DNA from: Cytophagales bacterium
GTDB taxonomy: Bacteria > Bacteroidota > Bacteroidia > Cytophagales > Cyclobacteriaceae
Assembly (NCBI GenBank): GCA_024232835.1
Contig: JAAEPI010000323.1
Span: 1 to 61,213, forward strand
DNA length: 61,213 nt
Reading direction: 5' to 3'
Shown here: one piece after another, positions 2,709-60,075 of the stretch
How positions within the stretch are numbered: position 1 is the stretch's first letter
Layout of the letters: every line of letters starts with the position of its first letter
Position numbers and translations under genes: made by a program
Notes under the pieces: generated by a model
What the model was told of the DNA's origin: nothing
The model's input: only the letters and a program-made list of their open reading frames with translations
The model's database searches: none

Positions 2709-2743
2709 AAAGAAGTACTTAAAGTAACTATTGTTGGGAGTGA

Positions 2744-2759
2744 ACTAAAGTACTTTAGT
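2744..2759. promoter_or_regulatory. perfect 16-bp palindrome ACTAAAGTACTTTAGT, possible operator
   Basis: Read directly. It lies in the 87-bp gap between the GltB-like gene and the scramblase-like gene. The heptamer AAGTACT also occurs at 2713-2719 and 2767-2773. Confidence 0.35.
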
Positions 2760-2795
2760 CACACCAAGTACTCCAAACTCCAGATACTCAAAGAA

Positions 2796-3383
2796 ATGAA
2801 CCCAATAGCAAATAGAAATCTCTTTTTTATTAAGGAACATGTTGGTATGTTCAAGGCTGCCAACAACTACGATATTCTAGATCCTGAAAGTCAAGAAATG
2901 CTCATGGAATGCCGTGAGGAAAAACTTGGTTTCTTCACTAAGATGCTTCGGTTTACCGACTACAAACGAATGACACCCTTCGAAGTGGAAATCAAAACAC
3001 CTTCTGGTGAGAAAGTGGTAACAATAAAAAGAGGTGTTTCGATTTTTTTATCCAATGTGGAAGTCTTCGACGATAAGGATCAATTAATTGGTCGATTCAA
3101 ACAACAGTTCTTTTCTATAGGTGGAAAATTCAACGTACTCAGCCCAAACGATGAGATCATGTGTAAACTGAAAGGCAAGTGGACAAGCTGGGATTTCAAG
3201 TTCATGAAAGAAGACACTGAACTTGCGCATGTGAGTAAAAAATGGGCTGGACTTGGCAAAGAACTTTTCACATCCGCTGACAATTACATGCTCAGTATTG
3301 ACAAGAGCGTGCCGAACGATCACCCGATCCGTTTACTGATCTTAGCTGCCGTGATGTGTATTGATATGGTGTTGAAGGAGTGA
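2796..3383 (+). CDS. scramblase / LURP-one-related family protein
   Basis: 195-aa ORF with a beta-rich body and a C-terminal hydrophobic helix (LLILAAVMCIDMVL), as in tubby-like scramblase-fold proteins. The family call is from recollection only. Confidence 0.5.
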   Translation: MNPIANRNLFFIKEHVGMFKAANNYDILDPESQEMLMECREEKLGFFTKMLRFTDYKRMTPFEVEIKTPSGEKVVTIKRGVSIFLSNVEVFDDKDQLIGRFKQQFFSIGGKFNVLSPNDEIMCKLKGKWTSWDFKFMKEDTELAHVSKKWAGLGKELFTSADNYMLSIDKSVPNDHPIRLLILAAVMCIDMVLKE

Positions 3384-3468
3384 TTTTTCAGTTGACTGGG
3401 GCAAAATATCCAGAACAATTTGAAATTCATTCTGAAGTTTTAAAAACAAAATTTCAACCTAAACTCCA

Positions 3469-4359
3469 TCAACCCATCAACTCCATCAATCGTTTGTCTT
3501 TCACTTCATTCTGCCCTTTAGTGAATGAAAATATTTCTAAACCAATCAATGGCAAATTGAGTAAATACAAATAATCATGCGCATTCAATACTGCCAAGAT
3601 TATATTAAAAGACAGCAAAGTAATCATCACGTGACTTGATTTTATGTTCAGAAAAAGAAATGTCATGTAGGCCAAGATTTTATTCTTACCAAGCAATACT
3701 CTAAAACCCTTCCCGGCTTGCCCTCCTCCCGTTTTAGCCCTCTTCATCCATTCGTTCAATGAGCGAGTGTAATGATGATATATTCTGAGATTATCTGGGA
3801 TCTCCATATTCCCTTTCGCTCTGAACGAATGAGGTCCATTCACTCTCTTGATAGCCTCAGGTTTTCCCATGTCTTTATAATGTGAACTCTTTCTTTCCCG
3901 ACGCTTGTATGAGTCAATGCTACTGCTTAATGGTAATTTCCAGTGTCCATTATTTCCAAAATTGAAACGAGGAATTCTCAGCTTGCCTAGTTTCTCCTTT
4001 TCATATTTTTTTAAACTTACTCTAATATCATTATTGTCCATCGGTACCAGATATTCATCAAGATCAATCAATTGTAGCCAGTCTGTTTGCTGTCCATATA
4101 CATTCACGCATTCCATGTAAGCCATAGTTTGTCTGGAATGATCGGTTTCCCCAATATGCTTTTCGGCTATATCGTCCGTCCATAAAGTATAAGTGATATG
4201 ATCCATATATGGCTCCAACAAATCTCGATGATCACCGCCATTGTCATATAGATAGAAATGATCTACACCCACCTTTATGTGATATTCCAACCATTCCACC
4301 AGGTATTTGTGCTCGTTTCGGAAGATGGCAACAATGCTCAAGTTGTGTCTTCTAGTCAT
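3469..4359 (-). CDS. glycosyltransferase, GT92 (DUF23)-like
   Basis: 296-aa ORF. N-terminal SIVAIFRNEHKYLVEWLEYHIKVGVDHFYLYDNGGDH and later DLDEY resemble the GT92/GT-A signature. The hydrophobic C-terminal tail may be ORF over-extension. Confidence 0.55.
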   Translation of the reverse strand: MTRRHNLSIVAIFRNEHKYLVEWLEYHIKVGVDHFYLYDNGGDHRDLLEPYMDHITYTLWTDDIAEKHIGETDHSRQTMAYMECVNVYGQQTDWLQLIDLDEYLVPMDNNDIRVSLKKYEKEKLGKLRIPRFNFGNNGHWKLPLSSSIDSYKRRERKSSHYKDMGKPEAIKRVNGPHSFRAKGNMEIPDNLRIYHHYTRSLNEWMKRAKTGGGQAGKGFRVLLGKNKILAYMTFLFLNIKSSHVMITLLSFNIILAVLNAHDYLYLLNLPLIGLEIFSFTKGQNEVKDKRLMELMG

Positions 4360-4484
4360 TGCAATTATTCATCTGCAGGATGTTCGTGTTTATAATCCAT
4401 AAAAGTTGGCAGTAACCAATCCACAATAGGCAAAGTTAAATTTGAAACAAAATTCAGAAATCCTTCCTTCTTTCCTTAAATCCA

Positions 4485-4613
4485 CCAGTGGGTTTTACCT
4501 GCCTGCGGTAGGCAGGTTCCCCGATGCTTGCATCGATTGAAGAAATATTTTTCCACATTCATACCTCGTGAGCCTGCCTTTGTTGACAGACAGGCTTGCT
4601 CCGAGGTACTTGA
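4485..4613 (+). repeat. dispersed hairpin-rich repeat, copy 1
   Basis: About 85% identical by eye to the reverse complement of 53808..53913. Shared core: GATGCTTGCATCGATTGAAGAAATATTTTTCCACATTCATACCTCGTGAGCCTGCC...CAGACAGGCTTGCTCCGAGGTACTTGA. This copy has an extra hairpin, ACCTGCCTGCGGTAGGCAGGT. Confidence 0.7.
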
Positions 4614-12001: not shown

Positions 12002-13006
12002 ATGCTGCAAGATTATGGCTTATTGCTAGACAATATAAAGCGAAGACGCTTTGATGAAGCGATCAGAGATCATGTCCTCTCTACTTCATTTTATAATGAA
12101 GATTTGACAAAATCTGTGAGGTATGCTCTTGAAAGCATGATTGAAATTGACTCTTCGTATGCATACAAGGTATATGCAAATTCAAGAAAAATAATCGAAT
12201 CCGTAGGAAAGGAATTAGGCAACATTGGAATTAATTCAGCGCTTCGTTATCAGGGGGCTCTACGAACAGATACACATATTCGGATTTATGGAGAGTTGGA
12301 CATATTGTGTATTCTGGAAGATACGGCTAGTCACAAAGAGGTATATTCTCTTGGTCAAACCATTCGTGACAATACGTCAAAACTTAAGCTTCAAAGTACC
12401 GATTACGGAGATGGAGTACGCATACGGTTGATCACAGAAAAGCCCGTCTGTAAGATTAATATTATCCCATGTTCGTGGATAAACAATCCTCAGTATGCTA
12501 AGACCAAGAGCGAAATATATCATGCGATTGTTGTATATAATTTCAAGGATAAGACAAGAAAGAAGTATTTGCCTTTTTTAAATATGGCTAGAGTAAATGC
12601 CAAAGACATTGCAACAAATGGTGCATACAAAAAACTTGTCAGGCTTCTGAGGTCTATATGCACGGATGATTCTATTTTGCTTGATGCGTATGAAATTGCT
12701 GGGCTATGTTATAGGATTGAGGATAACATCCTTGTTCAGGACGATAAACGGCCATTGAGTTTTTTGCCAGGGGTTTTTGACTATTTTAAATCTCTTCTGG
12801 CTGAGGCTGATGGTCTTGAGGTGTTGCTATCCCCAAGCGAAAAGGAGCTAGTCTTTGGTAAAAACCCTGATCGAAAGACAGCTGTCACTAAGCTAATGAG
12901 CTCTTTTCAAGGATTAATCGATAATCTAAACGAATCGATTGGAGAAAATTTGGATGCTGAAATAGAAACGTCATCTGATTCTCCCGCTGACTCCAAGACC
13001 GAATAG
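12002..13006 (+). CDS. Pol-beta-fold nucleotidyltransferase, CD-NTase/OAS/SMODS-like, non-canonical active site
   Basis: 334-aa ORF. YQGALRTDTHIRIYGELDILCIL aligns to the GS-x9-13-[DE]h[DE]h motif. KINIIPCSW sits where the third Asp strand (vDvvPa) is expected. NGAYKKLVRLLRSI...LLDAYEIAGLCY matches the helical lobe of the family. Confidence 0.5.
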   Translation: MLQDYGLLLDNIKRRRFDEAIRDHVLSTSFYNEDLTKSVRYALESMIEIDSSYAYKVYANSRKIIESVGKELGNIGINSALRYQGALRTDTHIRIYGELDILCILEDTASHKEVYSLGQTIRDNTSKLKLQSTDYGDGVRIRLITEKPVCKINIIPCSWINNPQYAKTKSEIYHAIVVYNFKDKTRKKYLPFLNMARVNAKDIATNGAYKKLVRLLRSICTDDSILLDAYEIAGLCYRIEDNILVQDDKRPLSFLPGVFDYFKSLLAEADGLEVLLSPSEKELVFGKNPDRKTAVTKLMSSFQGLIDNLNESIGENLDAEIETSSDSPADSKTE

Positions 13007-17176: not shown

Positions 17177-18967
17177 ATGAAAACTTTTAACAACTACAGG
17201 AATCAGTTTGTTCTGATATTTCTCGGTCTCAGCTTCGTTTTTGGAAATAATCTTTATGCGCAATCTGTGCAGATTGAAGACGCAACACGAGATGGATTTG
17301 ACGGGTTACGCAGAATCGGTGATGAGGGATATTATCTTCAGTTTGCCACCCAATGGACAGATGGTATGAAAAAAGGAAGTGCCAAAGTTCGTATAATTAT
17401 GATGGATAATGACCTGAACATTACAGGTGACATTTGGATCACAACAAGAGCAGGTGGTCAAGTTGAGGATGTGGCCTTCAACGGAGGGAATTTCATGGTA
17501 ATAAATAGTAATCTGAGAGAGGCAGTCAGAAAATTGACAATCGTTGACAAAGAAGGAAATGTAGTTGCTGAGCAAACCCTTGAAAAAGTAAAGAGAAGAT
17601 TGCTTTCAAAGCCAGCGTCAATTTTGCCAGTTGGTGACGGGGATTTTATGGTAATCAACTTTATCAAAGAGAAGAAAGTTGGTTACAGCATTAGTAGGTA
17701 TAATAGTAAGCTAGAAGTGCAGTACACTAAGGAGCAAATTCCAGATAAGAAAAAATTGTATCCTACCGACTTTTTTATTGACGGAGACCGGTTGAGTGTT
17801 CTAGAATTTATTACTCCTGATTTCTCGGATTATTTCGAATACCATGTGGCATCATTTGATGTGAACTCCGGTGAACAGATTTTCAAGCAACGAGTACAGA
17901 AACCGGGTGAAAAGGCATCTGGATATGCGACCTTTATTAGAAACGGGGGTGATGGAAAAGTAATGACTGGAGGTATGTTTTTTGATGGCCAAAGGGTGCA
18001 AGAGTCCAATTCAGATGGATTTTTTGCGGCTGTAATAGAGAAAGATGGTACGACTAAATTTTCATTCACTGACTGGAAAGAAGTTAAAGCTCAATTGAAA
18101 GATAAAGGTACTGGACTCTTACTGGGAGGAAAAACGAAGACTTTCATGCATGATATAGCTGTAAACTCAGATGGATCCTTCACACTTATTGGTGAGACCT
18201 ATAGAAAGGGAGATGCCGACATGGCTGGGAATAAGTCTACTGGTGCCAAATTGGGGAAAATGGCTGCAAAAATGGCTGCAGCAAAAGGCGGAGAATCAAA
18301 AGATGTTGATATTGCAGTCACGGTTTCAGGATTTGCTTTGATGAACTTTGATATTGAGGGGAAATTCACAAGTATCGAAAGAATAATTGAACGACCAACA
18401 ATAACAATTATTAAAAACACAACAGACCCTGATGATCTACCATATGTCGGCCAAAGAAAGGGTTTGAATGTTGCTAATATCCTTAATAACAATGGATATT
18501 TTCCGTATCGATTTGTAGCTGAAAAGGGAGACAATAAGTACATCGTTAGTGTGGCCAGTTATAAATCAGTACCGATGGAGCGTTTGTATTTCACAAAGTT
18601 GAATTCTGCTCAATTGGATACTGCTTCGGTGAATGTCACGAGTTCCGATCTTCAGCTTCTTTTGGACATGAAAAATAAGGTGATGAGCAAGATGGGGGGC
18701 TTGGGTAAACTGGCCAAAAAAACTCAAAAAGTTGGTGGGGGAGAGGATAAGAGTGAATTCGAATTAAGAGGTTCTCATGATCCATTCGATTATCGTTCGA
18801 AGGCATCAAATACCAGACTTGTTCAATCGAATATCTCAGGGAAGGTGTTGATTTATGATTTCGTTCCGATAGTAGAGGAGGGAGAAAAACAGAAAGGTTT
18901 CTTCGGACAACTATCCGACACAATGAGAGGAAGTTTGAAAATTCAATATATAGATCTTCCAAATTAA
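17177..18967 (+). CDS. secreted hypothetical protein
   Basis: 596-aa ORF with a clear signal peptide (FVLIFLGLSFVFGNNLYAQ). Beta-rich with a G/K/A-rich linker. No catalytic motif recognised. Confidence 0.6.
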   Translation: MKTFNNYRNQFVLIFLGLSFVFGNNLYAQSVQIEDATRDGFDGLRRIGDEGYYLQFATQWTDGMKKGSAKVRIIMMDNDLNITGDIWITTRAGGQVEDVAFNGGNFMVINSNLREAVRKLTIVDKEGNVVAEQTLEKVKRRLLSKPASILPVGDGDFMVINFIKEKKVGYSISRYNSKLEVQYTKEQIPDKKKLYPTDFFIDGDRLSVLEFITPDFSDYFEYHVASFDVNSGEQIFKQRVQKPGEKASGYATFIRNGGDGKVMTGGMFFDGQRVQESNSDGFFAAVIEKDGTTKFSFTDWKEVKAQLKDKGTGLLLGGKTKTFMHDIAVNSDGSFTLIGETYRKGDADMAGNKSTGAKLGKMAAKMAAAKGGESKDVDIAVTVSGFALMNFDIEGKFTSIERIIERPTITIIKNTTDPDDLPYVGQRKGLNVANILNNNGYFPYRFVAEKGDNKYIVSVASYKSVPMERLYFTKLNSAQLDTASVNVTSSDLQLLLDMKNKVMSKMGGLGKLAKKTQKVGGGEDKSEFELRGSHDPFDYRSKASNTRLVQSNISGKVLIYDFVPIVEEGEKQKGFFGQLSDTMRGSLKIQYIDLPN

Positions 18968-22548: not shown

Positions 22549-23223
22549 TTAAAGTGAATTGATGTAATGAAAAAGAGCAATAAAAATGAACCCGAATGGA
22601 ATTAGGATTGCGTAGGCATTTCCTAGTTTCCTGATGGTCGGTGTGTACTTCCTATGATTTACACCCATAGATTGAAATGAAGACTGGAACCCATGCAGTA
22701 GATGCAAAGCCAACAAGATAAAAGCGAGACAATAGATACCCACCCGAATAGGGTCGTGAAATTTTTCCAGAAGCTCATGATGATATCTATTGGGATCGCT
22801 TGGATTTATTTCCACATACTTAAATGTCAGTTCGGGAATCCAGAAATCATAAAAATGGACTCCCATGAACAATAGAATGACAAGTCCACTATAAATCATA
22901 TTTCTGGACATCCAGCTAGAATTGGCTGAACCCTTATTCATTGCATAGTTTACTTCTCGTGAGTTTTTGTTTTTAAATTCCAAAACAAAACCCATGACGA
23001 AGTGGAAAACTATTCCAAAAAGAAGAATTGGCTGAATGACGAACTGTATCAAAGGATTGGTTCCCATGAAGTGGGATATGCCGTTGAAAGTTGCCTCACT
23101 AAATACTGAGGTCACATTAATTGCAAAATGTTGAAGTAGAAAAATTAGCAGAAAAAGCGCCGAAAGTGCCATGGCGAATTTCTTACCAATGGAACTGTTG
23201 AAAAACTGTTTGGTCCAACCCAT
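22549..23223 (-). CDS. sdhC: succinate dehydrogenase cytochrome b subunit (b558 family)
   Basis: 224-aa ORF with five TM helices and conserved His residues. It lies immediately upstream of sdhA. Confidence 0.85.
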
Positions 23224-33682: not shown

Positions 33683-34213
33683 TTATTCCAGACTCTTCTG
33701 AACCATTCTCGTAATAGACTCTTCACGATTGTAAAAATCTTCCACTTCCTCCAATTTGATCCATCTCAGATCTATGGACTCATGATTTTTTTGGATTTCT
33801 TCTGGATTGGTGGATATAAACAAGAACCGAACATCATAATGCAGATGCTCGGGAATATCTTTTTTCTGTGGAATTGTATGAATGTCAAGGTCAAAAATCT
33901 CATTATTTGCTTTGAAGTGTACAAGACCGGTTTCTTCGTTTAGCTCCTTTTTAGCCACATTCAGTAAATCCTCATCACCATCTGCATGCCCACCTGGTTG
34001 CAACCACTTATCCAGTTTTTTGTGATGCATTAGTAGCACCTTCCCAGAGCCATCAAGTACCCAACAAGAGGCGGTGAGATGCCCAGCAAGTCTGGATCGA
34101 AGAAAGCAATCTTCGTCCTCTAATAATCCCAATAATTCGGATTTGTTTAGTTCTTCATTTTCAAAAGTGGAGGTGTAATTTTGAATGGATCTAATGAGGG
34201 AAGATTTGCTCAT
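33683..34213 (-). CDS. NUDIX hydrolase
   Basis: 176-aa ORF with NUDIX box GGHADGDEDLLNVAKKELNEETG. Confidence 0.8.
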   Translation of the reverse strand: MSKSSLIRSIQNYTSTFENEELNKSELLGLLEDEDCFLRSRLAGHLTASCWVLDGSGKVLLMHHKKLDKWLQPGGHADGDEDLLNVAKKELNEETGLVHFKANNEIFDLDIHTIPQKKDIPEHLHYDVRFLFISTNPEEIQKNHESIDLRWIKLEEVEDFYNREESITRMVQKSLE

Positions 34214-34911
34214 TCCTCCTTCCCAAACAACTTCACAAGTGACACTAAGTGACTAAATAACACAGCAGGAACAACGAGCAATGGAAGCCAAACGAAAGGC
34301 ACATAAAATACCGCTGCATTCACCAACTCGGTACCTGAACCATCATAGAAATAGGGTGTAAATGAGATAGCTCTCACTACGATATTTATAAGCAGTCCCA
34401 GACAAATGAGGTTCCAGGCAATCGCACCGAACTTGTTGCTACTCTTTTTCCCAACTAAGAATACTCCAGCAAAAGGTGCAGTAATTCCGGCAAGGATGTC
34501 ATAATTGGCTCCCTCAAAGGTCATTTCTTCAGCCACAAGTTCAGCCTTAAACAGCCACCAAAGACAAATTTCGACGGGTACCCTCACTATATGGATATAG
34601 GTCAATGTGGTGATTGGCATTTTCTTTACAAAGGCCCTTGTGTTAGGCATTATCAAAAGAACAAGAATGAGAATGATCGTGGGCGCCACGAAAAGCATGA
34701 GTTTAGGTGGCAGGGAATAGTCCAGGAAAAATCCTTTGTATGTAAGAACCCCTGTCAGAAACAACCAGCCCATAAGAGCTGTTACTGTCCAGGTGCTACC
34801 AAATCGCTTGGGCGTTTTGAATGCACGATAGCTAGCGTAAAACAGGAAACCAAAAACGGTGAAAACAACAGCGGTGAAAACTAAACTGATGTGGATGGGA
34901 AGATTCTCCAT
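34210..34911 (-). CDS. integral membrane protein, unknown function
   Basis: 233-aa ORF with about seven predicted TM helices. It overlaps the downstream NUDIX gene by 4 nt. Confidence 0.6.
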   Translation of the reverse strand: MENLPIHISLVFTAVVFTVFGFLFYASYRAFKTPKRFGSTWTVTALMGWLFLTGVLTYKGFFLDYSLPPKLMLFVAPTIILILVLLIMPNTRAFVKKMPITTLTYIHIVRVPVEICLWWLFKAELVAEEMTFEGANYDILAGITAPFAGVFLVGKKSSNKFGAIAWNLICLGLLINIVVRAISFTPYFYDGSGTELVNAAVFYVPFVWLPLLVVPAVLFSHLVSLVKLFGKEE

Positions 34912-38243: not shown

Positions 38244-38416
38244 AATTTAAATTATGGTTCTCTAATTTTTTAGCTATCTACCTTCACAATCACCCGTACA
38301 ATCTTCATCGTCATTACACTCACGATGGTGACTTTTCGGAGTATTTTCTGCGATTGGGTAAGGATTGCTGATTAGTTTGAGGTTCGAGATTATCTTAGCA
38401 AACAAATTTGGTTAGG

Positions 38417-38854
38417 ATGGATGAAAAATCGGACATACGGTGGATTCAACGAATGGCTAATTATGAAAAAGCCTTAGCTCAATTAAAGAAGGCTGTGGAA
38501 AAAGCCGAAGAAGAGGAGCTGTCTGACCTGGAGGAGCAGGGATTGATCCAGTCGTTTGAGTACACGCATGAGTTGGCCTGGAGCGTAATGAAGGATTACT
38601 TTGAATATCAGGGGAATACGGAAATCACAGGATCCAGGGATGCTATAAGAGAAGCTTTCAATAGGGGCTTGATTAAGAACGGTGATACATGGATGGACAC
38701 GATCAATAGCCGAAATAAAACGAGCCATACGTACAATGAGGAGACTGCAGAGGAAATTGCCACGGCCATTGTAGAGGACTACTATTTGATATTTGAGGAG
38801 TTTCGAAAGAAAATGAACGAAATCAGATTTGGTGAACAGGGTACAGTACTTTAG
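38417..38854 (+). CDS. HI0074-family nucleotidyltransferase substrate-binding protein (HEPN)
   Basis: R-x4-H motif SRNKTSHTYNEE and the typical F.kAL..L N-terminus. The first ATG of the TTG-initiated ORF is used. Confidence 0.85.
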   Translation: MDEKSDIRWIQRMANYEKALAQLKKAVEKAEEEELSDLEEQGLIQSFEYTHELAWSVMKDYFEYQGNTEITGSRDAIREAFNRGLIKNGDTWMDTINSRNKTSHTYNEETAEEIATAIVEDYYLIFEEFRKKMNEIRFGEQGTVL

Positions 38855-38859
38855 TTCTT

Positions 38860-39159
38860 ATGTACGGCCTCTCAGATCAAAATATTACAGATATTAGTCA
38901 TTGTTTTGCCATTCAAGACAATGTAGAAGAAGTGTGGCTTTATGGCTCAAGAGCCAAAGGCAACTTCAGACCAGGATCGGATGTGGATCTAACGATCAAA
39001 GGGAAGTCACTTGCATTGACAGATTTATATCGTATTGAAAATGCCTTGGATGATCTGCTCTTGCCGTACACATTTGACTTGTCATTATATCATCAGATTG
39101 ATAATAAAGACCTGCTTGCACATATAGAACGAGTAGGCAAGGTGTTTTACAAGAGGTAG
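38860..39159 (+). CDS. HI0073-type nucleotidyltransferase (MNT)
   Basis: 99-aa ORF with LYGSRAKGNFRPGSDVDLTI, 5 nt after the HEPN gene. Confidence 0.85.
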   Translation: MYGLSDQNITDISHCFAIQDNVEEVWLYGSRAKGNFRPGSDVDLTIKGKSLALTDLYRIENALDDLLLPYTFDLSLYHQIDNKDLLAHIERVGKVFYKR

Positions 39160-39553: not shown

Positions 39554-42500
39554 TTAGCTTTTTTCTCTCTCCATCTCCCCGATAATCTTCATGGTCTCTA
39601 CACTCACCGTGCAGACACGTTCGAGAAGGTTGATCACATGTTCTTTGTAGTCGGCGAAGCGATAGGTATTGAACTTCTCGGCGATGGTTTTGTCTTTTGG
39701 TTTCTTTTCCTTGTATTGATCCAGTATCCACTCCAGCGCAGAGCGATTGCCTAGCTTGTAATCCCAAGCTTCTGAGGGTATGCCACCAAGACTTGTTTGC
39801 TCATCCAGCACTATGATACCAGTTTCTTCATCTGCCTTGAGTTTTACTTTGAGCTTTCCTTTGGCGTCATTGCGAGCCCCTGCAAGGGGCGAAGCAATCT
39901 CTTTTTTGGAGGCAGATTGCTTCACTTCGTTCGCAATGACGGATAGAGCAAACGGCTCCACCTCTTCATAACCAATATGCAACTCCATGAGCGCTTTGCC
40001 CCACTTAACCCACTGGTAGAAGTCTTCATAGTAGGGCAACCGTGGAAACTCCCGTTTTAGATTCAGCGCATACTTCTCCCGATAAGCAGGATTGTGCAGC
40101 ACACCGTAGGTATAATGGAAGATGTCTTCTTTGGTGATGTCTCCATTCCGCACTTGTTGCGGAATCCCCTTCTTCTTGGGAGACTTCTCGCTGACGGTAT
40201 AGTGAGCTTGAAACTGCTCTAAGCCCCAGTCGGTAGTGTTGTCGTGGCGAGTGCCATCAGAAAAGTAGCGGTACAGTGGGAGGCATTGGGAATCACCAGT
40301 CAGATGCAATTCCATTAAAAAATCGGAAGCTAAACACTGAAAACCCTTAACCTGAGAAATTGCACTCACGGCTATAGACAGATTTTCACCCGACGTTTTC
40401 AGAGGAAAAATATTACCAAAAGAATAGAGTCTATCAAAAAGGTCCGTGTCGTAATAGACATTCATTTTGACGAAGGGTCTCCATAATATTGGCCTTAACC
40501 TTTCTAACTGATAATTCAGCTTCACACCCTTTTTCAAAGATCGGATCAACCCTTCAGTCCATTTGATGGTCTTGCTGAGGTTCTTAGAATGCCCTAAATT
40601 TTCATTATAGATTCCATGAAAAAATTGTATCTTCTTTTCAAGATTTTTTCGATTTTTATCATACACCCACTCGTCTCTTCCACTTCTAATTCCGAGTGAA
40701 AACTCTTTAAAAACAGACATTTCATGTTTTCCTGTTTTTACCATTTTATCCATCAACGGCACCAATTCTTCCCAGTCATTGTCGACTAGATTAATCCAGT
40801 TATTTTTTCTCGGAGCGATGTGTTCAAAAGCGATTTCGGAGAACTGCTTATTTTTGATCCATTCCAGTTTTACTTCTTTGCGCCAGTCGTCTTCTATTTC
40901 TCCATTGTAGTAGATCTGGCAGGGTAGCTGCTCGTCTTTGCGAGTCCCTACGGGGGACGAAGCAATCTCTTTCTTGGAGGTAGATTGCTGTGCTGCGCTC
41001 GCAATGACGGCTTGCTTTTTCACCAAAAACATCATCGCTACACCCGTCTGTATGCCGAATACATTGTGGGTGGTGCCCGCTATTCTGGGGTTGGCTCGTA
41101 CGTCACTTTTAGTATCCACCACATAGCAGTAATCAAAGTCCTCTTGAATACATTTTCTGAATCCGTCAAACGTGCGGCTGTCTATAAAACTGCGGTTGGT
41201 GATAAAACTCACGATACCATTCTGATCCACCCTATCCATCGCCCAGCGATAAAAACGGGTGTACATATCATAAACTACAATCTGATTTTGAGCAGAACCA
41301 TACTTTATATAGGTATCCTTTATGCGTTGATCCACTCGCTTGTAGGCACGATTTGAGTTCTGGTAATTGTAGTTTTCCTGCTTCGCATTGTAAGGGGGAT
41401 TCCCGATTACGACAGATATTTTTTGTTTATTCTGCCTTTTGATCCGTTCAGCATTCTCACTGCTAATTCCTCCAAACATATCTATCTGCACGCCCTGATC
41501 TTTGCTCATCCTGTCCCAGCTCAATGAGGCCGTGTTGTCTAGCGTATCTACAAAGCAGATGTTGGGAAATTCGGCATACTTGCCCATCTTTTGTTTGTAG
41601 GTAAACTCTATGTTGAGATTGGCCACATAATAGGGGAGTATGGCTACTTCATTCGCATGAATTTCATGCTGGTACTTGTGCTCAAGATATTGCTCGGGGA
41701 TGTATTCGATAATATCAGTTATGAATGTCCCTGTCCCTGTTGCCGGATCAAGAATATGTACGTTTTCGTCATGCAGGTTCCTTCCGAAATGTTTTTCCAG
41801 CAAGTAATCCGTACTTCGGATCATAAAGTCTACGATCTCATTGGGCGTATAAACTACACCGAGTCTGTCTGCACCTTTTGGGTTGTAGACTTTGTAGAAG
41901 TTTTCATAAACCACCTTTAGGAACTTCTGCTTTTCGTGATGGTCGGCTACTGTGGATGCTTGTGCATTGAGTGTTTTGTAATAGTGCCCTAGTTCGCCTA
42001 GTTGATTTTGGCGGACTTCACGATTCATGAAGGTATTAACCAATCGCTCCAGTTCGTGTGCTATGTTGTTTTCGTGATGAAAATCCGACTCATCGAAAAC
42101 CGATTTGAACAAATCCTCAGTAAGAATGTGCTGAATCACCATCTCCCGAATATCTTCGATGGTGATCGCCGGGTTGATTTCCTGCTTACACATTTCCCAG
42201 AATTCGTCACGGGCTTTGGTGTAGGTGCTGTTGGTTTTGTTTTGCTCGGCTATTAACGTTCTGAGCGTTTCCACTATGGTAGGAATGTCTTCTTTGAATC
42301 CCCGAAGTGCCTCTTCAAAATTTTCGAGGTATTTTGGTTTGTAGTCAATAAAGGACTTCAAGATACGCTGGAGGCTATCACCATCTTGCATGGAAATGCG
42401 TTGTACCTCTTCTCCGTTTTGAATCAAGACGGCTGTCTCACTATCTTGGAAAAGGATATTTGAGTTCGGATATCCGTCTTTGTATAGTTTTTTCTCAATT

Positions 42501-42766
42501 TCCTGATCAATCGAATCTCCTGTGTCTTTGCTTTCTATAAAACCCTTATGAATTCGAAGTTCATTCATGAGAATACCATCTGGACGGATATTCTTGCCGG
42601 TTTCATTTTTGATGGTGACTTCCAAGGCATAGACGTAGTGCTTGGAAAATGCCATTTGCTGCATGAGGGTATCAAACGGCTGTTTGATTGTCATCTCATT
42701 AGAATGCCCCGTCCTTCTCAGCGACTGAAGGTGAGTATAGTACTGGTTAATGAGTTGGTTCGACAC
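39554..42766 (-). CDS. N6-adenine DNA methyltransferase with Type ISP-like C-terminal domain, possible Type IIG restriction-modification fusion
   Basis: 1070-aa ORF. Motif I ILDPATGTGTFI precedes motif IV VVIGNPPYNAKQ (gamma order). The C-terminus NRSALEWILDQYKEKKPKD resembles the Type ISP/YeeA-like specificity domain. The N-terminus has a PD-(D/E)xK-like pattern, IRPDG...GFIESKD. Confidence 0.75.
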   Translation of the reverse strand: MSNQLINQYYTHLQSLRRTGHSNEMTIKQPFDTLMQQMAFSKHYVYALEVTIKNETGKNIRPDGILMNELRIHKGFIESKDTGDSIDQEIEKKLYKDGYPNSNILFQDSETAVLIQNGEEVQRISMQDGDSLQRILKSFIDYKPKYLENFEEALRGFKEDIPTIVETLRTLIAEQNKTNSTYTKARDEFWEMCKQEINPAITIEDIREMVIQHILTEDLFKSVFDESDFHHENNIAHELERLVNTFMNREVRQNQLGELGHYYKTLNAQASTVADHHEKQKFLKVVYENFYKVYNPKGADRLGVVYTPNEIVDFMIRSTDYLLEKHFGRNLHDENVHILDPATGTGTFITDIIEYIPEQYLEHKYQHEIHANEVAILPYYVANLNIEFTYKQKMGKYAEFPNICFVDTLDNTASLSWDRMSKDQGVQIDMFGGISSENAERIKRQNKQKISVVIGNPPYNAKQENYNYQNSNRAYKRVDQRIKDTYIKYGSAQNQIVVYDMYTRFYRWAMDRVDQNGIVSFITNRSFIDSRTFDGFRKCIQEDFDYCYVVDTKSDVRANPRIAGTTHNVFGIQTGVAMMFLVKKQAVIASAAQQSTSKKEIASSPVGTRKDEQLPCQIYYNGEIEDDWRKEVKLEWIKNKQFSEIAFEHIAPRKNNWINLVDNDWEELVPLMDKMVKTGKHEMSVFKEFSLGIRSGRDEWVYDKNRKNLEKKIQFFHGIYNENLGHSKNLSKTIKWTEGLIRSLKKGVKLNYQLERLRPILWRPFVKMNVYYDTDLFDRLYSFGNIFPLKTSGENLSIAVSAISQVKGFQCLASDFLMELHLTGDSQCLPLYRYFSDGTRHDNTTDWGLEQFQAHYTVSEKSPKKKGIPQQVRNGDITKEDIFHYTYGVLHNPAYREKYALNLKREFPRLPYYEDFYQWVKWGKALMELHIGYEEVEPFALSVIANEVKQSASKKEIASPLAGARNDAKGKLKVKLKADEETGIIVLDEQTSLGGIPSEAWDYKLGNRSALEWILDQYKEKKPKDKTIAEKFNTYRFADYKEHVINLLERVCTVSVETMKIIGEMEREKS
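39865..39941. repeat. 77-bp nested-palindrome element, copy A, in frame inside the methyltransferase ORF
   Basis: Outer 11-bp inverted repeat CGTCATTGCGA...TCGCAATGACG (perfect). Inner stems GCCCCT-GCA-AGGGGC and GAAGCAATCT...AGATTGCTTC. Encodes VIANEVKQSASKKEIASPLAGARND. Confidence 0.8.
40933..41009. repeat. 77-bp nested-palindrome element, copy B, in frame inside the methyltransferase ORF
   Basis: CGTCTTTGCGAG...CGAAGCAATCTCTTTCTTGGAGGTAGATTGCT...CTCGCAATGACG. Same orientation and codon phase as copy A. Encodes VIASAAQQSTSKKEIASSPVGTRKD. Confidence 0.8.
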
Positions 42767-42891: not shown

Positions 42892-45177
42892 TCATTTAGT
42901 ATTTTTCAATACCTGCCCAATCCGGGCAACCACTGTTTCTGCATTCTCCTTTGTGAAACAAAGAGGAGGCTTGGTCTTCAGCACATTATCGAATGGGCCA
43001 TCAGTGCCAATTAGAATATGTTGATTTCGAAGTTCGTTCTTGATGTGATTGGCTAATTCTACATCAGGTTCTTTAGTGATCGGATCTACTACAATTTCTA
43101 CTCCGATGAACAGTCCGGAACCTCGTACATCTCCAATACAAGCATGCTCATTTTGGAGATCCTTGAAGAGCTTTTGGTAATAATCGCCAACCTCTTTTGC
43201 ATTCTTCTGTAGCTCTTCCTTTTCAATTACATTCAAAACAGACAGACCAATGGAACAAGACACTGGGTTGCCTCCAAACGAACTAAAAAACTCCACTCCT
43301 TTGCCAAATGACTCTGCGATTGCAGTGGTGGTGATAACTGCTCCGATCGGGTGACCATTTCCCATAGGTTTACCAAGAATCACAATATCTGGAACCACGT
43401 CTTGCATTTCATAGCCCCAAAAGTGATCACCCAAACGACCGAAACCGGTTTGAACCTCATCGCTGATACAAATACCTCCTTGCTTCCGAACTTCTGGGTA
43501 TAGCTCCTTGAGGTATCCAGATGCCAAGGGAATTTGTCCGCCACAACCAACAATTGGCTCGCTGATAAAAGCGGCGATTGCACCATTCGCATTTCTCAAT
43601 TGATTGATGGCTTCTTTGGCATATAATTTCCCAGCTGTTCCGTAATCAAAGTTGTATTTACCCCTATATTCATCAGGAATTGGGGTTTTTAGAATATGTT
43701 CCTTTTTACCTTGGCCAAGCTCATTGCTGAATTTGTAGTCACTAATGTCTATTGCATTTTGTGTGTTGCCATGGTATCCGTGCTCCATTACCATGAATTG
43801 TTGATTGTCGGTGTGAGCTTGTGCCAGCCTAAGTGCAAGGTCAGTTGCGGAACTTCCCGAATTCACAAAATAAACTTTGTCTAAGGAAGGTGGGAATTTG
43901 GACAATAGTTTTTCTGCATATGCCCCCAATGGATCATATAAATATCTAGTATTTGTATTTAGCTTGGCCATTTGTCGTTGACCTGCTTCAACCACTTTAG
44001 GATGAGAATGCCCCACATGCGGTATGTTATTGTAAGCATCCAGGTAGGTATTGCCATAGACATCATACATATATTGAAATGCCGAACGATTCATGTAGAT
44101 CGGTTGGGAATAGCTCAAAGACACTATCGGACTAATTGATTCTTGTCTTTTTTGAATCATCTGATCGGTAGACATGGGAGTCACAACAGAATATCCAGCA
44201 GCTTCTCGAAAGCGATTTTCAGCCTCCACCGGATTAATTGTGATCCATTGGTGCATCAATCCTACTATGGATTCCTCGCTGCTGAAAGCATAGGTATTTT
44301 CAGGATATAATTTCCTTGAGTGCGAGGAACCACAAACGCTGATACATAATCTGGCAACTATCAAGTAATACAAAACCGACAGCTCGACTTCCAGAACAGG
44401 CAATACCTTGTGATATGCACGAATGATTTCTTGTGCCCATTCTAACGGATCTTCTTTGCCATAACAAGCATACGCAATGGATACGGCTAATTCATTAATT
44501 AAATAGGAGTGAGCCAAATCTCCAAAATCAATTATTCCAGTTACCTGATCTCCTGAAACCAGCAAATTCCATTCGTTCGCGTCATTGTGAATAATATTCT
44601 TTCGAAGCTTGGGTAGTATCGGTACCACGTTTTCTTCAAACTGCTGAAAATAGTACTCGACCAGTCGCTGATTCTTATGATCAGAGATGTCTTGAATTAA
44701 TTCCTTATTGAGATAAAGGCTCTTGATATCCCATGCCCATTCCCTTGCTTGGATAGTGTGATTCGTAATGGATTGAAACTGCAAATCCATATTGGCCAGA
44801 AAGGTGCCAAGAGATTGATACAATGAGATTGAAGGAGTCGCATCACCTAGTAGATCGCCCTCCAGATAGGAGAGCATACGACAAATAGTAGGCTGTCCTG
44901 TAACTGCAAGCTGTTTAACGAAACGACCATCGCAGAATGGAATTGGGGAAGGAAACGCGGAATGGCTACTATTTTGGAGATGAGCCAGTACCTCATTTTC
45001 GGCCAGAATAAGAGTTAATTGGTCTGGATCATCTGAATATGTTTTGAAAATAAATTTTTCTCCTTCGTTTTCGATGAGGTAATTGAAGTTATCATAGCCG
45101 TTTAATTTTTTGATCTCTGGATGTAGAAATCCGAATCCCTCTTGCAACAGAATCTTTATTTCACTCAAGTGGCTCAT
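42892..45177 (-). CDS. fused APH-like kinase / class-III PLP aminotransferase-fold enzyme
   Basis: 761-aa ORF. The N-terminal half has kinase motifs IIHNDANEWNLLV and IDFGD. The C-terminal half has SDEVQTGFGRLG and the PLP-lysine region LGKPMGNGHPIG. Confidence 0.8.
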   Translation of the reverse strand: MSHLSEIKILLQEGFGFLHPEIKKLNGYDNFNYLIENEGEKFIFKTYSDDPDQLTLILAENEVLAHLQNSSHSAFPSPIPFCDGRFVKQLAVTGQPTICRMLSYLEGDLLGDATPSISLYQSLGTFLANMDLQFQSITNHTIQAREWAWDIKSLYLNKELIQDISDHKNQRLVEYYFQQFEENVVPILPKLRKNIIHNDANEWNLLVSGDQVTGIIDFGDLAHSYLINELAVSIAYACYGKEDPLEWAQEIIRAYHKVLPVLEVELSVLYYLIVARLCISVCGSSHSRKLYPENTYAFSSEESIVGLMHQWITINPVEAENRFREAAGYSVVTPMSTDQMIQKRQESISPIVSLSYSQPIYMNRSAFQYMYDVYGNTYLDAYNNIPHVGHSHPKVVEAGQRQMAKLNTNTRYLYDPLGAYAEKLLSKFPPSLDKVYFVNSGSSATDLALRLAQAHTDNQQFMVMEHGYHGNTQNAIDISDYKFSNELGQGKKEHILKTPIPDEYRGKYNFDYGTAGKLYAKEAINQLRNANGAIAAFISEPIVGCGGQIPLASGYLKELYPEVRKQGGICISDEVQTGFGRLGDHFWGYEMQDVVPDIVILGKPMGNGHPIGAVITTTAIAESFGKGVEFFSSFGGNPVSCSIGLSVLNVIEKEELQKNAKEVGDYYQKLFKDLQNEHACIGDVRGSGLFIGVEIVVDPITKEPDVELANHIKNELRNQHILIGTDGPFDNVLKTKPPLCFTKENAETVVARIGQVLKNTK

Positions 45178-45815: not shown

Positions 45816-45862
45816 GGTTCGAATTTAGTAATTCCAGATTACTTCTCCCGATTAGATCAGGA

Positions 45863-45915
45863 TCGCAATGACAGGAAAGTTTATGTCATTGCGAGGAGGA
45901 ACGACGAAGCAGTCT
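45863..45915. repeat. partial, rearranged copy C of the palindromic element (intergenic)
   Basis: TCGCAATGACA-10 nt-TGTCATTGCGA followed by GGAGGAACGACGAAGCAGTCT. It shares the GTCATTGCGAG and CGAAGCA-TCT blocks with copies A and B. Confidence 0.65.
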
Positions 45916-45920
45916 AAAAC

Positions 45921-46712
45921 TTAATTATTCCATTTCTTTAAATGATCACTGATAAAGTCGATCACTTGTTCATGTTCGGTTTTACCTGCTCCTTCGATCT
46001 TGAAAGGTTCACCGAACTGAATATAAATTGGGAGCTTCCGATTAATCCCCCCCAAGTCTTTTACCACAGTTCCGTTTTTCCAAAAATCAGTTTTGATAGC
46101 TATGGGTACCACGTGTGCTTTGGCCTTTTTGGCAAGCTTAATTCCAAGTTTGTTGAATTGACCAGGATCAAAATCCACCACACGTTTGCTTTGAGGGAAA
46201 ACCACCACTGACTTTCCATTTTCTAAATGCTCAACGCCATCAGTCATTACTTTTTTGAAATCGGCAACAGGATCATGACGTGCAACCGTAATTGGATTTC
46301 GCACTCTCATAACTGGCCCAAATAACCAGTGACTCACCAAACTTTCTTTCACGACAAAAGTGACTGGACGTCTGGAGGCTAATATCCCTGGGAAAATCAT
46401 TGTTTCCATCGTGCCCATGTGATTGCTAATGAAAACTACTGGATCGTCCGTTTTGTTGATGTTGTTGAGTCCTTCAATGTGAAATTTTCCCCCGCAATTT
46501 TCTATTAATTGGAAGATATTCATTGATTCAGTGGCCCATTTATATCTATCGAATTTCCCAGCCAGTGCCACTTTTCTATTCATCATCAACTGAGTAAGGA
46601 ACTTTGCATTGAAAAAGGCAGAAGTGCCCAATGCCGCTTTATCGCCAAAATCTCGTGGATGATTTTTGTCTGTATAATATGAATCGGTGTGAATGAAGTT
46701 GTCAGTTGGCAT
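45921..46712 (-). CDS. lysophospholipid (1-acylglycerol-3-phosphate-type) acyltransferase
   Basis: 263-aa ORF with an H-x4-[DE] motif (FISNHMGTMET) and VVVFPQSKR. Confidence 0.7.
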   Translation of the reverse strand: MPTDNFIHTDSYYTDKNHPRDFGDKAALGTSAFFNAKFLTQLMMNRKVALAGKFDRYKWATESMNIFQLIENCGGKFHIEGLNNINKTDDPVVFISNHMGTMETMIFPGILASRRPVTFVVKESLVSHWLFGPVMRVRNPITVARHDPVADFKKVMTDGVEHLENGKSVVVFPQSKRVVDFDPGQFNKLGIKLAKKAKAHVVPIAIKTDFWKNGTVVKDLGGINRKLPIYIQFGEPFKIEGAGKTEHEQVIDFISDHLKKWNN

Positions 46713-55871: not shown

Positions 55872-56651
55872 CTAAAAAACCTGTTTTATTTGCATACATC
55901 CGTCCTTTTTTAAGTGCACGAAACGACCATGATCGTAAGTGAAAAAGTTAACAGACATAATCAACAACAGAGCCGTATTTTCAATCATACTCGTTTGATC
56001 CAAACAAAGTTGTGAAGTCATTGGATCTGTTGGCATTTTAAGTATCGGCAACATTGAACTACTGTGAACTGAATATTTTCCATGCAAATCATGATTCAGT
56101 GGCTTATAACATTCATCCACATTATCATATCTGAAATCCGAAAGAGCCACCAGGCATGTATTGATCTTAAAATTTGTAGCCTCTTTAGATCTTTCTAAAT
56201 CTTTATCTGGAACAAAGGCAGGGAAATGAATAATAACCTGATCACGACGCGAGCCCTGCTTAATATGGTACTTCGCATTTAATGCTTTATTATAAGGAAC
56301 GTCATAGTTAAACTCAAATCCAGTCAATTTCTTCCCATACTTACTCAGGCAAATTGGGCGCGTACCCACTCGACCTTCTGCAAACTTGGACAATCCCTTA
56401 AACTGAGTTGTCAACTTTGTGCAATGGTAACTCTCACATATCTCCACCATTTCAGACGAAAAACTTGCAAGCAGTGTTTTTGAAATTTCTAAGGCTACCT
56501 CTCTTTCAAGAGATGTTGATTGTGAGACTTTTTTATCTGTATGAATCTTGTCTTTGACACCTACGGTTAGGATATCTGAAACTGGATTTTTTAAATTGAA
56601 TTTATTGTACTCTTTGGAGATATCTTGGATGGCAATTGAAGCTGTATTCAT
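55872..56651 (-). CDS. hypothetical protein
   Basis: 259-aa ORF 31 nt upstream of, and co-oriented with, the TPR gene. No signal peptide and no recognised motif. Confidence 0.55.
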   Translation of the reverse strand: MNTASIAIQDISKEYNKFNLKNPVSDILTVGVKDKIHTDKKVSQSTSLEREVALEISKTLLASFSSEMVEICESYHCTKLTTQFKGLSKFAEGRVGTRPICLSKYGKKLTGFEFNYDVPYNKALNAKYHIKQGSRRDQVIIHFPAFVPDKDLERSKEATNFKINTCLVALSDFRYDNVDECYKPLNHDLHGKYSVHSSSMLPILKMPTDPMTSQLCLDQTSMIENTALLLIMSVNFFTYDHGRFVHLKKDGCMQIKQVF

Positions 56652-59100: not shown

Positions 59101-60075
59101 ATGGACAAAAACGAACAATCAGAAAATACTGACAATCAAAAACAGGAGCCGCAAAATCAAGAAGAGCAACTTGAAGAATTCGTGCCGAAAAAGAGCAAAA
59201 GCATGATGCCAGTTTTAATGGGAGTCGCATTTATTCTCATGGTCGTTTTGCTTTATTTCTTTATTCAAAATAGAGGCCTGAAAGAGGAAGTAGCCGAGAC
59301 CCAGACAGAACTCAATCAAGCGGTACTACAATTGGATTCTATCGGAAGTGAATTGGATCAAAAAATACTTGAAATTACTCGCTTAGGCGGAGACGTAGAC
59401 ACCCTACTTCAAATCAAAGCTGAGCTTGAAGGCGAAAAAAGAAAACTTTTATCAACAAACAGCCGAAACAAAAATGCGATCGCCGAGCTGAAAGACAAGG
59501 TAGATGGCTATCAAGAATTGTTGATTATTAAAGACAAAGAAATCAGGGTATTGAAAGAACAAAATGAAGTCTTGCATACTGAAAACACCACATTAAAAGT
59601 GGAGAAAAATCAGTTGTCAGATTCCATCACTTCGATAGCTGAGACGAGAGATCAACTCTCAGAGCAAGTGGCTCTTGCTTCTACCCTGAAGGTAACGGGA
59701 ATGAAAATATTTGCTGTAAATAGTAAAGGGAAGGAAAAAGAAAGCGAATTTAGAAATCGTCATGTCGAGAATTTGCGGATAGAGTTTACTGTCAATGAAA
59801 ATAGAGTGGCTCCAATCGAGGGTAAAGAATTGCTCTTGCGAGTAATTGCACCAGACAATAATGTCTTATTCGATGTTACGCGTGGTTCGGGCTCTTTCAA
59901 CTACGAAGGAAGAGAAATGTTCTACACGGTTAAGAAAGAAATTCTTTATGACCGATCGAGTCAAAAAGTGACGCTGCTTTACAATAAAGGAAGCGAGTAC
60001 ACTCTTGGCAAACACTCAGTAGAAGTCTACACTGATGACTACATGATGGGCAGAGGTAGTTTTGTGATTAAGTAG
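59101..60075 (+). CDS. membrane-anchored coiled-coil protein
   Basis: 324-aa ORF with an acidic/Q-rich N-terminus, one TM helix (MPVLMGVAFILMVVLLYFFI), about 130 aa of heptad-like coiled coil, and a beta-rich C-terminal domain. Confidence 0.6.
   Translation: MDKNEQSENTDNQKQEPQNQEEQLEEFVPKKSKSMMPVLMGVAFILMVVLLYFFIQNRGLKEEVAETQTELNQAVLQLDSIGSELDQKILEITRLGGDVDTLLQIKAELEGEKRKLLSTNSRNKNAIAELKDKVDGYQELLIIKDKEIRVLKEQNEVLHTENTTLKVEKNQLSDSITSIAETRDQLSEQVALASTLKVTGMKIFAVNSKGKEKESEFRNRHVENLRIEFTVNENRVAPIEGKELLLRVIAPDNNVLFDVTRGSGSFNYEGREMFYTVKKEILYDRSSQKVTLLYNKGSEYTLGKHSVEVYTDDYMMGRGSFVIK

Follow-up and report, generated by a model that had tools for sequence, protein, structure and literature searches.

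CGTC-tagged palindromic doublets read in frame within two loops of a DrdV-like restriction-modification gene from Bacteroidota

How can one protein-coding gene contain two large palindromes and still be read as a single open frame? The question is raised by a 61,213-nt contig of a Cytophagales bacterium (JAAEPI010000323.1; its full length is called the window here), in which two 77-nt nested palindromes lie inside an unbroken 1,070-codon open reading frame (ORF) coding for a DrdV-like Type IIL restriction-modification enzyme. We conclude that the two palindromes are very probably doublets of CGTC-tagged repetitive extragenic palindromic (REP) units that landed in two tolerant loops of the protein, where they would be carried as disordered passengers by an enzyme that most likely still works.

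Two nested palindromes in one open reading frame

A first-pass annotation, made from the sequence alone, had placed the palindromes within the ORF in the same orientation and codon phase, and direct reading of the coordinates, a repeat search, and folding all agree with it. Copy A lies at 39865-39941 and copy B at 40933-41009; the repeat search pairs 39865-39942 with 40933-41010 at 83% identity over 78 nt, and no similarity extends outside the precise shared ends, CGTC...GACG. Their starts are 1068 nt apart, or 356 codons, so that orientation and phase are identical. The plus-strand folds reach -43.7 kcal/mol for copy A (z=-6.9) and -36.8 kcal/mol for copy B (z=-3.9), with 0 of 200 dinucleotide shuffles as good in either case. 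The mRNA-strand hairpins (-40.5 and -32.2 kcal/mol) also fold much better than shuffles, and the folding check that the annotation had proposed finds both copies far more stable than shuffled sequence.

Each copy is an inverted pair of unequal units with their tags outermost. In copy A, a 15-nt spacer (39900-39914) separates a 35-nt tagged unit (39865-39899, +) from a 27-nt tagged unit (39915-39941, -); the left unit reads CGTC ATTGC GAG CCCCTGCAAGGGG CGAA GCAAT C, and the right unit, on the opposite strand, reads CGTC ATTGC GAA CGAAGT GAA GCAAT C. Copy B has the same layout, its 35-nt (40933-40967, +) and 27-nt (40983-41009, -) units lying on either side of a 15-nt spacer (40968-40982). The inner hairpin of the longer unit is TCCCTACGGGGGA in copy B, which comes first in the protein, and CCCCTGCAAGGGG in copy A, which comes second, and between the two there is a compensatory change of a C-G to a T-A pair. 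CGTC opens each of the four intragenic units.

The peptides encoded are VIASAAQQSTSKKEIASSPVGTRKD from copy B (residues 587-611) and VIANEVKQSASKKEIASPLAGARND from copy A (residues 943-967), which have VIA, SKKEIAS, and R(N/K)D in common. The 13 nucleotide differences between the copies alter 10 of the 25 residues, so that conservation lies in the DNA structure and not in the peptide. An Rfam scan of the whole window returned one tRNA only, with no RNA family at the palindromes. We also considered the palindromes as intrinsic terminators or promoters and dropped the idea, there being no terminator-like site or tail at copies A and B.

The palindromic unit in other genomes

The unit is widespread. 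Scanning one genome per species for the pattern GTCATTGCGAG-N4-30-GAAGCAATC recovered it in at least 120 genome stretches from many phyla, and a scan of viral contigs found it in at least 120 of them. Among the matches listed, carriers include Alphaproteobacteria (many Bradyrhizobium, and Sphingomonadales) and Gammaproteobacteria, the Bacteroidota genera Pedobacter, Mucilaginibacter, and Flavobacterium, and Chloroflexota, Cyanobacteria (Nostoc and Microcoleus), Patescibacteria, Zixibacteria, Planctomycetota, and others; across these distant phyla and the viral contigs the CGTC/ATTGC unit is uniform. The annotation had predicted further copies in the source genome; the source being a 61-kb contig, the numerous further copies of the unit come from other genomes only. 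A literature search with the raw sequence GTCATTGCGAG gave unrelated primer matches only. Some of the viral contigs from IMG/VR (L138, L159, and L169) carry four to six units in a single orientation, unlike the usual inverted pairs; L169 has four tandem units at 33-nt spacing, at 2695-2818.

The 120 genome stretches listed yield 171 exact-pattern matches. GTC is preceded by C in 106 of them and by T in 57, units of 26 nt are the most frequent, and GCAATC is most often continued by CAG (63 of the 171), giving the tail GCAAT-CCA; the window units have a CTC/CTG tail in place of CCA, a variant that also occurs in other Bacteroidota and Chloroflexi copies. When one mismatch was allowed in the head and tail motifs, the stretches listed together with the window gave 210 units. 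Within this relaxed set, 57 of 68 close pairs have outward-facing tags, with spacers of 7-60 nt, and many combine a 32-34-nt unit with a 26-nt unit; counted from GTC, the window copies combine units of 34 and 26 nt around their 15-nt spacer.

In its general form the unit is a (C/T)GTC tag followed by a 5-bp stem (ATTGC/GCAAT), which a GA/GAA internal loop separates from a small inner hairpin, usually GCGNAGC. Where the middle is 6 nt long it reads C-G-N-A-G-C and only N varies (A in 69, C in 27, T in 18, and G in 10); d(GCGNAGC) is a classic DNA mini-hairpin of very high stability, in which GNA forms the loop. Of the middles of at least 14 nt, 65% form a perfect stem of 4 bp or more, compared with 21% after shuffling, and the stem sequences are diverse. 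What is conserved in the middle of the unit is therefore a shape, not a sequence, and this suggests that it is recognized as a folded single-stranded nucleic acid. The outer stem also varies in a paired manner in places: 16 units deviate from the TGC/GCA stem core, and four of these, of three types (TCC/GGA, TCT/AGA, and CGC/GCG), are complementary double changes.

Most copies elsewhere lie between genes. An open frame of at least 300 aa spans 29% of the units in other genomes and 65% of control positions, and the spanning share is an upper bound on the units that lie inside genes, as long open frames arise spuriously in high-GC genomes. Five candidates were examined and one is clearly protein internal, a single unit at 2896-2921 of L114 that encodes VIASKAKQS in the middle of a UvrA-like ORF (1761-4490, -), between the ATPase halves. 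The case echoes published reports of REPs as often present in uvrA and other repair genes. Units in other genomes use all three left-hand reading phases.

These features place the window element among known repeats. The survey by Di Nocera, De Gregorio & Rocco (2013, BMC Genomics 14:522, PMC3733652) describes CGTC-tagged REPs as 20-40-bp units with the tag CGTC, TGTC, or CCTC, stems that start with A-T, and tails that are mostly CCA, arranged mainly as inverted dimers, often heterodimers, with variable spacers, in five phyla including Bacteroidetes. The window element resembles them in its CGTC/TGTC tag and A-T/T-A stem start, in the CCA-type tail of most of its relatives, and in forming inverted, often unequal pairs that are mostly intergenic, occur in Bacteroidetes and many other phyla, and have no known linked transposase. 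It differs in having a 5-bp stem, G-A mismatches, and an inner mini-hairpin where the four published CGTC families have a plain stem of 8-9 bp and a loop of 4-5 nt, and in the CTC tail of the window copies; the survey also mentions some families with atypical loops (PMC3733652). By its tag, its stem start, the tail of its relatives, and its dimers, the window element appears to fit the CGTC-tagged REP superfamily, at the superfamily level only.

Residence within genes is likewise on record. According to the survey, pairs of CGTC or GTAG REPs can lie within ORFs, where they contribute 20-30 aa and in some cases occur two to an ORF; an N-6 DNA methylase with a GTAG-type dimer is among the cases in the supplement (PMC3733652). 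In-frame REP insertion is thus already documented, and this locus is an ordinary new example, sharing with CGTC-tagged REPs the occasional in-frame pairs, the 20-30 aa encoded, and the presence of two pairs in one ORF. The survey also counts Rickettsia palindromic elements (RPEs) among the superfamily members, as RPE-4 (CGTC-4) and RPE-6 (CGTC-1), together with Neisseria dRS3 (PMC3733652). The parallel to RPEs that the first-pass annotation had drawn is accordingly more than an analogy. Both kinds of element are palindromic repeats in frame within genes left intact (Ogata et al., as cited in PMC3733652). The RPE hosts are Rickettsiales and the host here belongs to Bacteroidota, the link resting on the classification given in the survey, according to which RPE-1 is longer than the window element.

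The host gene and the loops that carry the inserts

The host gene (39554-42766, -; 1,070 aa) had been annotated as a YeeA/Type ISP-like methyltransferase, and this assignment does not hold. The protein does match ISP_coupler, N6_Mtase/Eco57I, and Type_ISP_C in Pfam, but its residues 1-1068 align with residues 1-1027 of DrdV (PDB 7LO5/7LVV; E=7.5e-294 with 7LO5), a Type IIL enzyme with its own nuclease domain, whereas the match to the Type ISP enzymes LlaBIII and LlaGI is confined to the methyltransferase and recognition parts. In DrdV the nuclease lies at the N terminus and is followed by a helical connector, the methyltransferase domain (295-635), and the target recognition domain (636-1029) (bioRxiv 10.1101/2021.01.06.425610). 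With borders taken from the DrdV paper, the host protein has the same order: a PD-(D/E)xK-type nuclease, a helical connector, a gamma-type N6-adenine methyltransferase, and a target recognition domain. It carries the nuclease-type motif P62-D63...E78-x-K80, the S-adenosylmethionine-binding motif DPATGTGTF, and NPPY, and in 47 aligned homologs D63, E78, K80, D340-P341-A342/G344-T345-G346-T347, and N456-P457-P458 are invariant.

The end-to-end alignment to DrdV and the presence of the nuclease, S-adenosylmethionine, and NPPY motifs mark the host as a predicted complete, self-contained restriction-modification enzyme and therefore not an orphan methyltransferase. The annotation had raised the question of loss of function or altered specificity; nothing suggests either, with catalytic motifs intact and inserts in variable loops, and judging by its sequence the enzyme most likely still works. 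This family goes by inconsistent public names ("predicted helicase," "type ISP restriction/modification enzyme," "N-6 DNA methylase"), and DrdV is without a helicase module.

The 25-aa segments are absent from most of the host protein's closest relatives. We took the best 120 homologs from a search of 5.8 billion proteins, the nearest of which is 69% identical to the host protein; both segments are lacking in most of the closest homologs (69-60% identity), for example, P0002-P0004, P0006, and P0007, which have short loops at these sites, and DrdV is short at both as well. This is the outcome of the ortholog alignment that the annotation had proposed as a check for ~25-aa insertions. Between conserved anchors, the first loop is 29 aa in the host and a median of 6 aa in 119 homologs, and the second is 29 aa in the host and a median of 14 aa in the homologs; length varies at both sites across the family.

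The predicted structure agrees with the alignment. In an AlphaFold2 model of the host protein (47-sequence alignment; mean predicted local distance difference test [pLDDT] score, 79), pLDDT falls below 50 at residues 587-612, between strands 576-583 and 617-621 (copy B), and again at residues 951-969, between strands 942-945 and 974-979 (copy A). The copy B site corresponds to a beta-hairpin loop late in the methyltransferase domain, ~10 residues past the DNA-contacting D564 and K567 in DrdV numbering; the copy A site corresponds to a loop of the target recognition domain at about DrdV 909-928, far in sequence from the base-contacting region 673-807. Alignment and model thus support the two segments as likely insertions in flexible, length-variable surface loops. 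As with RPEs, the insertions are in frame, leave the ORF intact, and lie at fold-compatible loops of low confidence.

The shared phase of the two copies carries less weight. Three to four of the six frames are stop-free in each copy, the excluded phase reading TCG CAA TGA at the right end, and other genomes use all three phases, for which reasons the common phase of copies A and B is weak evidence taken alone. Same phase as a sign of selection was dropped on these grounds.

Could the segments instead be a true protein-level repeat or linear motif, with the palindromy incidental? Both are read in one phase and have the words VIA, SKKEIAS, and R(N/K)D in common, and the homolog P0008 encodes the similar VIP...EIASPAARND. 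However, the segments are missing from most of the closest homologs, 10 of 25 residues differ between copies that keep their DNA structure, in other genomes the identical DNA unit lies mostly between genes and is read in different frames, and AlphaFold2 confidence is low at both segments. We consider a protein repeat extremely improbable and this reading close to refuted. The annotation's view of a dispersed DNA element is upheld by the same absence from most of the closest homologs, the occurrence of the unit in many phyla, and the 10 differing residues.

Inserts in related enzymes

Gene DNA was recovered for three homologs. P0005 (L121) has a CGTC unit, CGTCATTGCGAGAAGTGAGGAACGAACGACGAAGCAATC, in loop 1 at the same nucleotide position and in the same phase as copy B (...GC|CGTCATTGCGAG), followed by a sister-type unit, GTCATCCTGAG...GAAGGA. 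In P0008 (L122), loop 1 holds a full pair with outward-facing tags, which is read in the phase seen in the window and encodes the peptide given above; the gene shows the stem ATTCC/GGAAT, also complementary, and its loop 2 holds nested GTCA(C/T)NCTGAG-type units. The annotation had named segments without palindromy in orthologs as an outcome that would speak against a DNA element, and the segments of P0005 and P0008 are palindromic DNA units. Loops 1 and 2 of these two genes also hold other GTC-tagged palindromes, GTCATCCTGAG...GAAGGA and GTCAC(G/T)CTGAGC(C/T)TGTCGAAG, one nested in another, and the genes have a hairpin segment, CCTTCCCTGGGGAAGG / GCCCGCAGGGC, that encodes FPGEGARRAEGV. P0009, P0089, P0092, and P0102 have other repeat-like inserts in loops 1 or 2.

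These relatives suggest a different history for copy B, in which a single ancestral insertion of a CGTC unit in loop 1, common to the window gene and the P0005/P0008 lineage, was remodeled by further insertions or gene conversion, the gene having perhaps been acquired horizontally together with its repeats. The identical nucleotide position and phase of the unit in the window and P0005 favor such an origin, and the homologous genes lie in different neighborhoods, as expected of mobile defense genes. The tree leaves room for it: P0008 groups with P0009 at 100% bootstrap and P0005, P0008, and P0009 group at 69%, but the placement of the window protein is poorly supported (16% with P0003, 18.5% with P0005, and 16% with P0005, P0008, and P0009 together). 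On the other side, the first unit is 26 nt in the window and 38 nt in both P0005 and P0008, P0009 has a different loop-1 insert despite its firm grouping with P0008, and the equally close P0002, P0003, P0004, P0006, and P0007 have short, clean loops. Copies A and B are, moreover, each other's closest known relatives, with a spacer seen only in the two. We regard an ancestral insertion as unlikely, though it deserves serious consideration. The neighbor-joining topology had suggested an origin of the loop-1 insert independent of that in P0005 and P0008, and we set this aside as the bootstrap is too low to support it. The differences in unit subtype and the different insert of P0009 argue at least for turnover of loop-1 inserts.

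The same loop-1 nucleotide position in the window gene and P0005, and the CGTC-type units and other, unclassified repeat-like inserts collected by both loops in several relatives, also prompt a bolder idea: that the loops of DrdV-like enzymes are preferred landing sites, through site-specific insertion or exchange of restriction alleles. If so, loop variants or in-phase direct repeats might change the assembly of the enzyme or switch it off. We give this idea little credence.

Proposed origin and spread of the doublets

We favor the reading that each 77-nt palindrome is a REPIN-like inverted doublet of two hairpin units from the CGTC-tagged REP superfamily. Such units would be non-coding, selfish or formerly mobile elements that are normally intergenic, and two doublets of one genome-specific subtype would have landed in, or been copied into, two surface beta-hairpin loops of the Type IIL gene. 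Three circumstances could explain their survival: the phase read (GTC ATT GCG ... CGC AAT GAC) is stop-free, 75 of the 77 nt form whole codons, and both loops would tolerate extra residues. The 25-aa peptides would be disordered passengers and the inserts presumably neutral. Since the ends are precise and the spacer, TCTTTYTTGGAGG, is common to both copies, the pair was probably copied as a whole.

The REPIN comparison rests on this arrangement. REPINs, which Bertels and Rainey are said to have described in 2011 as mobilized by REP-associated tyrosine transposases (RAYTs), are inverted REP doublets that fold into one long hairpin, with the doublet as the copied unit, and the window copies share their spacer too. 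REPINs differ in having GTAG-type units and a single-copy RAYT gene, compared with the CGTC units here, and no RAYT or other Y1 transposase was seen in window ORFs of at least 150 aa or near the pairs examined elsewhere. By analogy with GTAG REPs and RAYTs, insertion could plausibly be the work of an enzyme that recognizes single-stranded DNA in its folded form, in keeping with an inner hairpin conserved in shape. The 2013 survey reports no dedicated transposase for CGTC REPs (PMC3733652), and the later papers examined likewise name none; the enzyme that spreads them has gone unnamed since 2013, and the present locus does not identify it.

Several observations weigh against the reading that we favor. 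There is no empty-site allele from a close relative, the nearest homolog being 69% identical. None of the window ORFs of at least 150 aa has a transposase domain, and between adjacent pairs in L043, L044, L067, L101, and L119 there are only ordinary genes, those in four other genomes being housekeeping genes, and no mobilizing gene; as no transposase is found in the window or between flanking pairs elsewhere, we can only infer mobility. The source DNA, a 61-kb contig, has three copies only, all within 6 kb, and the stem has 5 canonical base pairs in addition to non-canonical ones, compared with 8-9 bp in the four published CGTC families. Finally, the subtype spacer was found nowhere else, one search of metagenome contigs returning 0 matches. 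The sole metagenome match to the spacer pattern, at 6021-6041 of L244, is coding (VTLEEAISFLEEMFG) and lacks a palindrome, and was rejected as chance; with 0 matches in the one search and one chance match, the subtype is known from this window alone.

A further possibility is that the palindromes have been put to use, either as hairpins that tune the expression of a potentially toxic enzyme or as direct repeats through which codons 587-942, and with them most of the target recognition domain, could be deleted in frame as an off switch. The great stability of the mRNA-strand hairpins would suit the first role and the spacing of the direct repeats, exactly 356 codons apart, the second, and one stem change between copies A and B is compensatory. 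But the two copies match at just 83% of positions and are exactly identical over short runs only, the same elements lie between ordinary genes in many genomes, most of the closest homologs work without the segments, and the protein database search turned up no deletion variant. A regulatory or switching role therefore seems very improbable, and disordered passengers in tolerant loops remain our preferred account of the inserts.

On that account the locus provides a clean, well-controlled case of small palindromes absorbed in protein loops of a large, multi-domain Bacteroidota defense enzyme for which a close homolog has a solved structure. Such inserts inflate protein families with spurious "VIAS...ARND"-type segments and mislead the annotation of domains and loops. 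The interest is modest, and lies in the recurrent occupation of two loops in related enzymes and in the shape-conserved mini-hairpin of a widespread unit.

Third copy and neighboring genes

A third copy lies outside the host gene, at 45837-45914, where a degenerate unit (45837-45873, -) and the 31-nt unit TGTCATTGCGAGGAGGAACGACGAAGCAGTC (45884-45914, +) form a pair with inward-facing tags; these intergenic units start with TGTC. It begins 22 nt upstream of the start of a MOSC ORF (45815) and lies 6 nt past the stop of an acyltransferase ORF (45921-46712, -), both flanking genes being on the minus strand. The annotation had this copy as intergenic and rearranged, at 45863-45915: its intergenic position stands, and it is an inward-facing pair, not merely a rearranged copy. 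Searches of the 61-kb window with the head and tail motifs, mismatches allowed, found no further copies beyond these three.

The neighbors of the host gene are chromosomal Bacteroidota genes, one of which encodes a CHU_C type IX secretion signal domain. Pfam gives no match at E<=1e-5 for six ORFs of 224-596 aa (12002-13006, 17177-18967, 22549-23223, 34210-34911, 55872-56651, and 59101-60075). In a 761-aa ORF at 42892-45177 (-), an APH-type phosphotransferase domain (26-259) is fused with a class-III aminotransferase domain (359-757), and within this ORF a two-mismatch match to the element head, at 44580-44591, looks like chance. Just downstream of the restriction gene, an ORF for a nucleotidyltransferase substrate-binding (HEPN-like) protein at 38408-38854 (+) stands beside an ORF for a Pol-beta-type nucleotidyltransferase at 38860-39159 (+). 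Pairs of this kind are commonly toxin-antitoxin modules, and together with the restriction gene the pair resembles a small defense islet.

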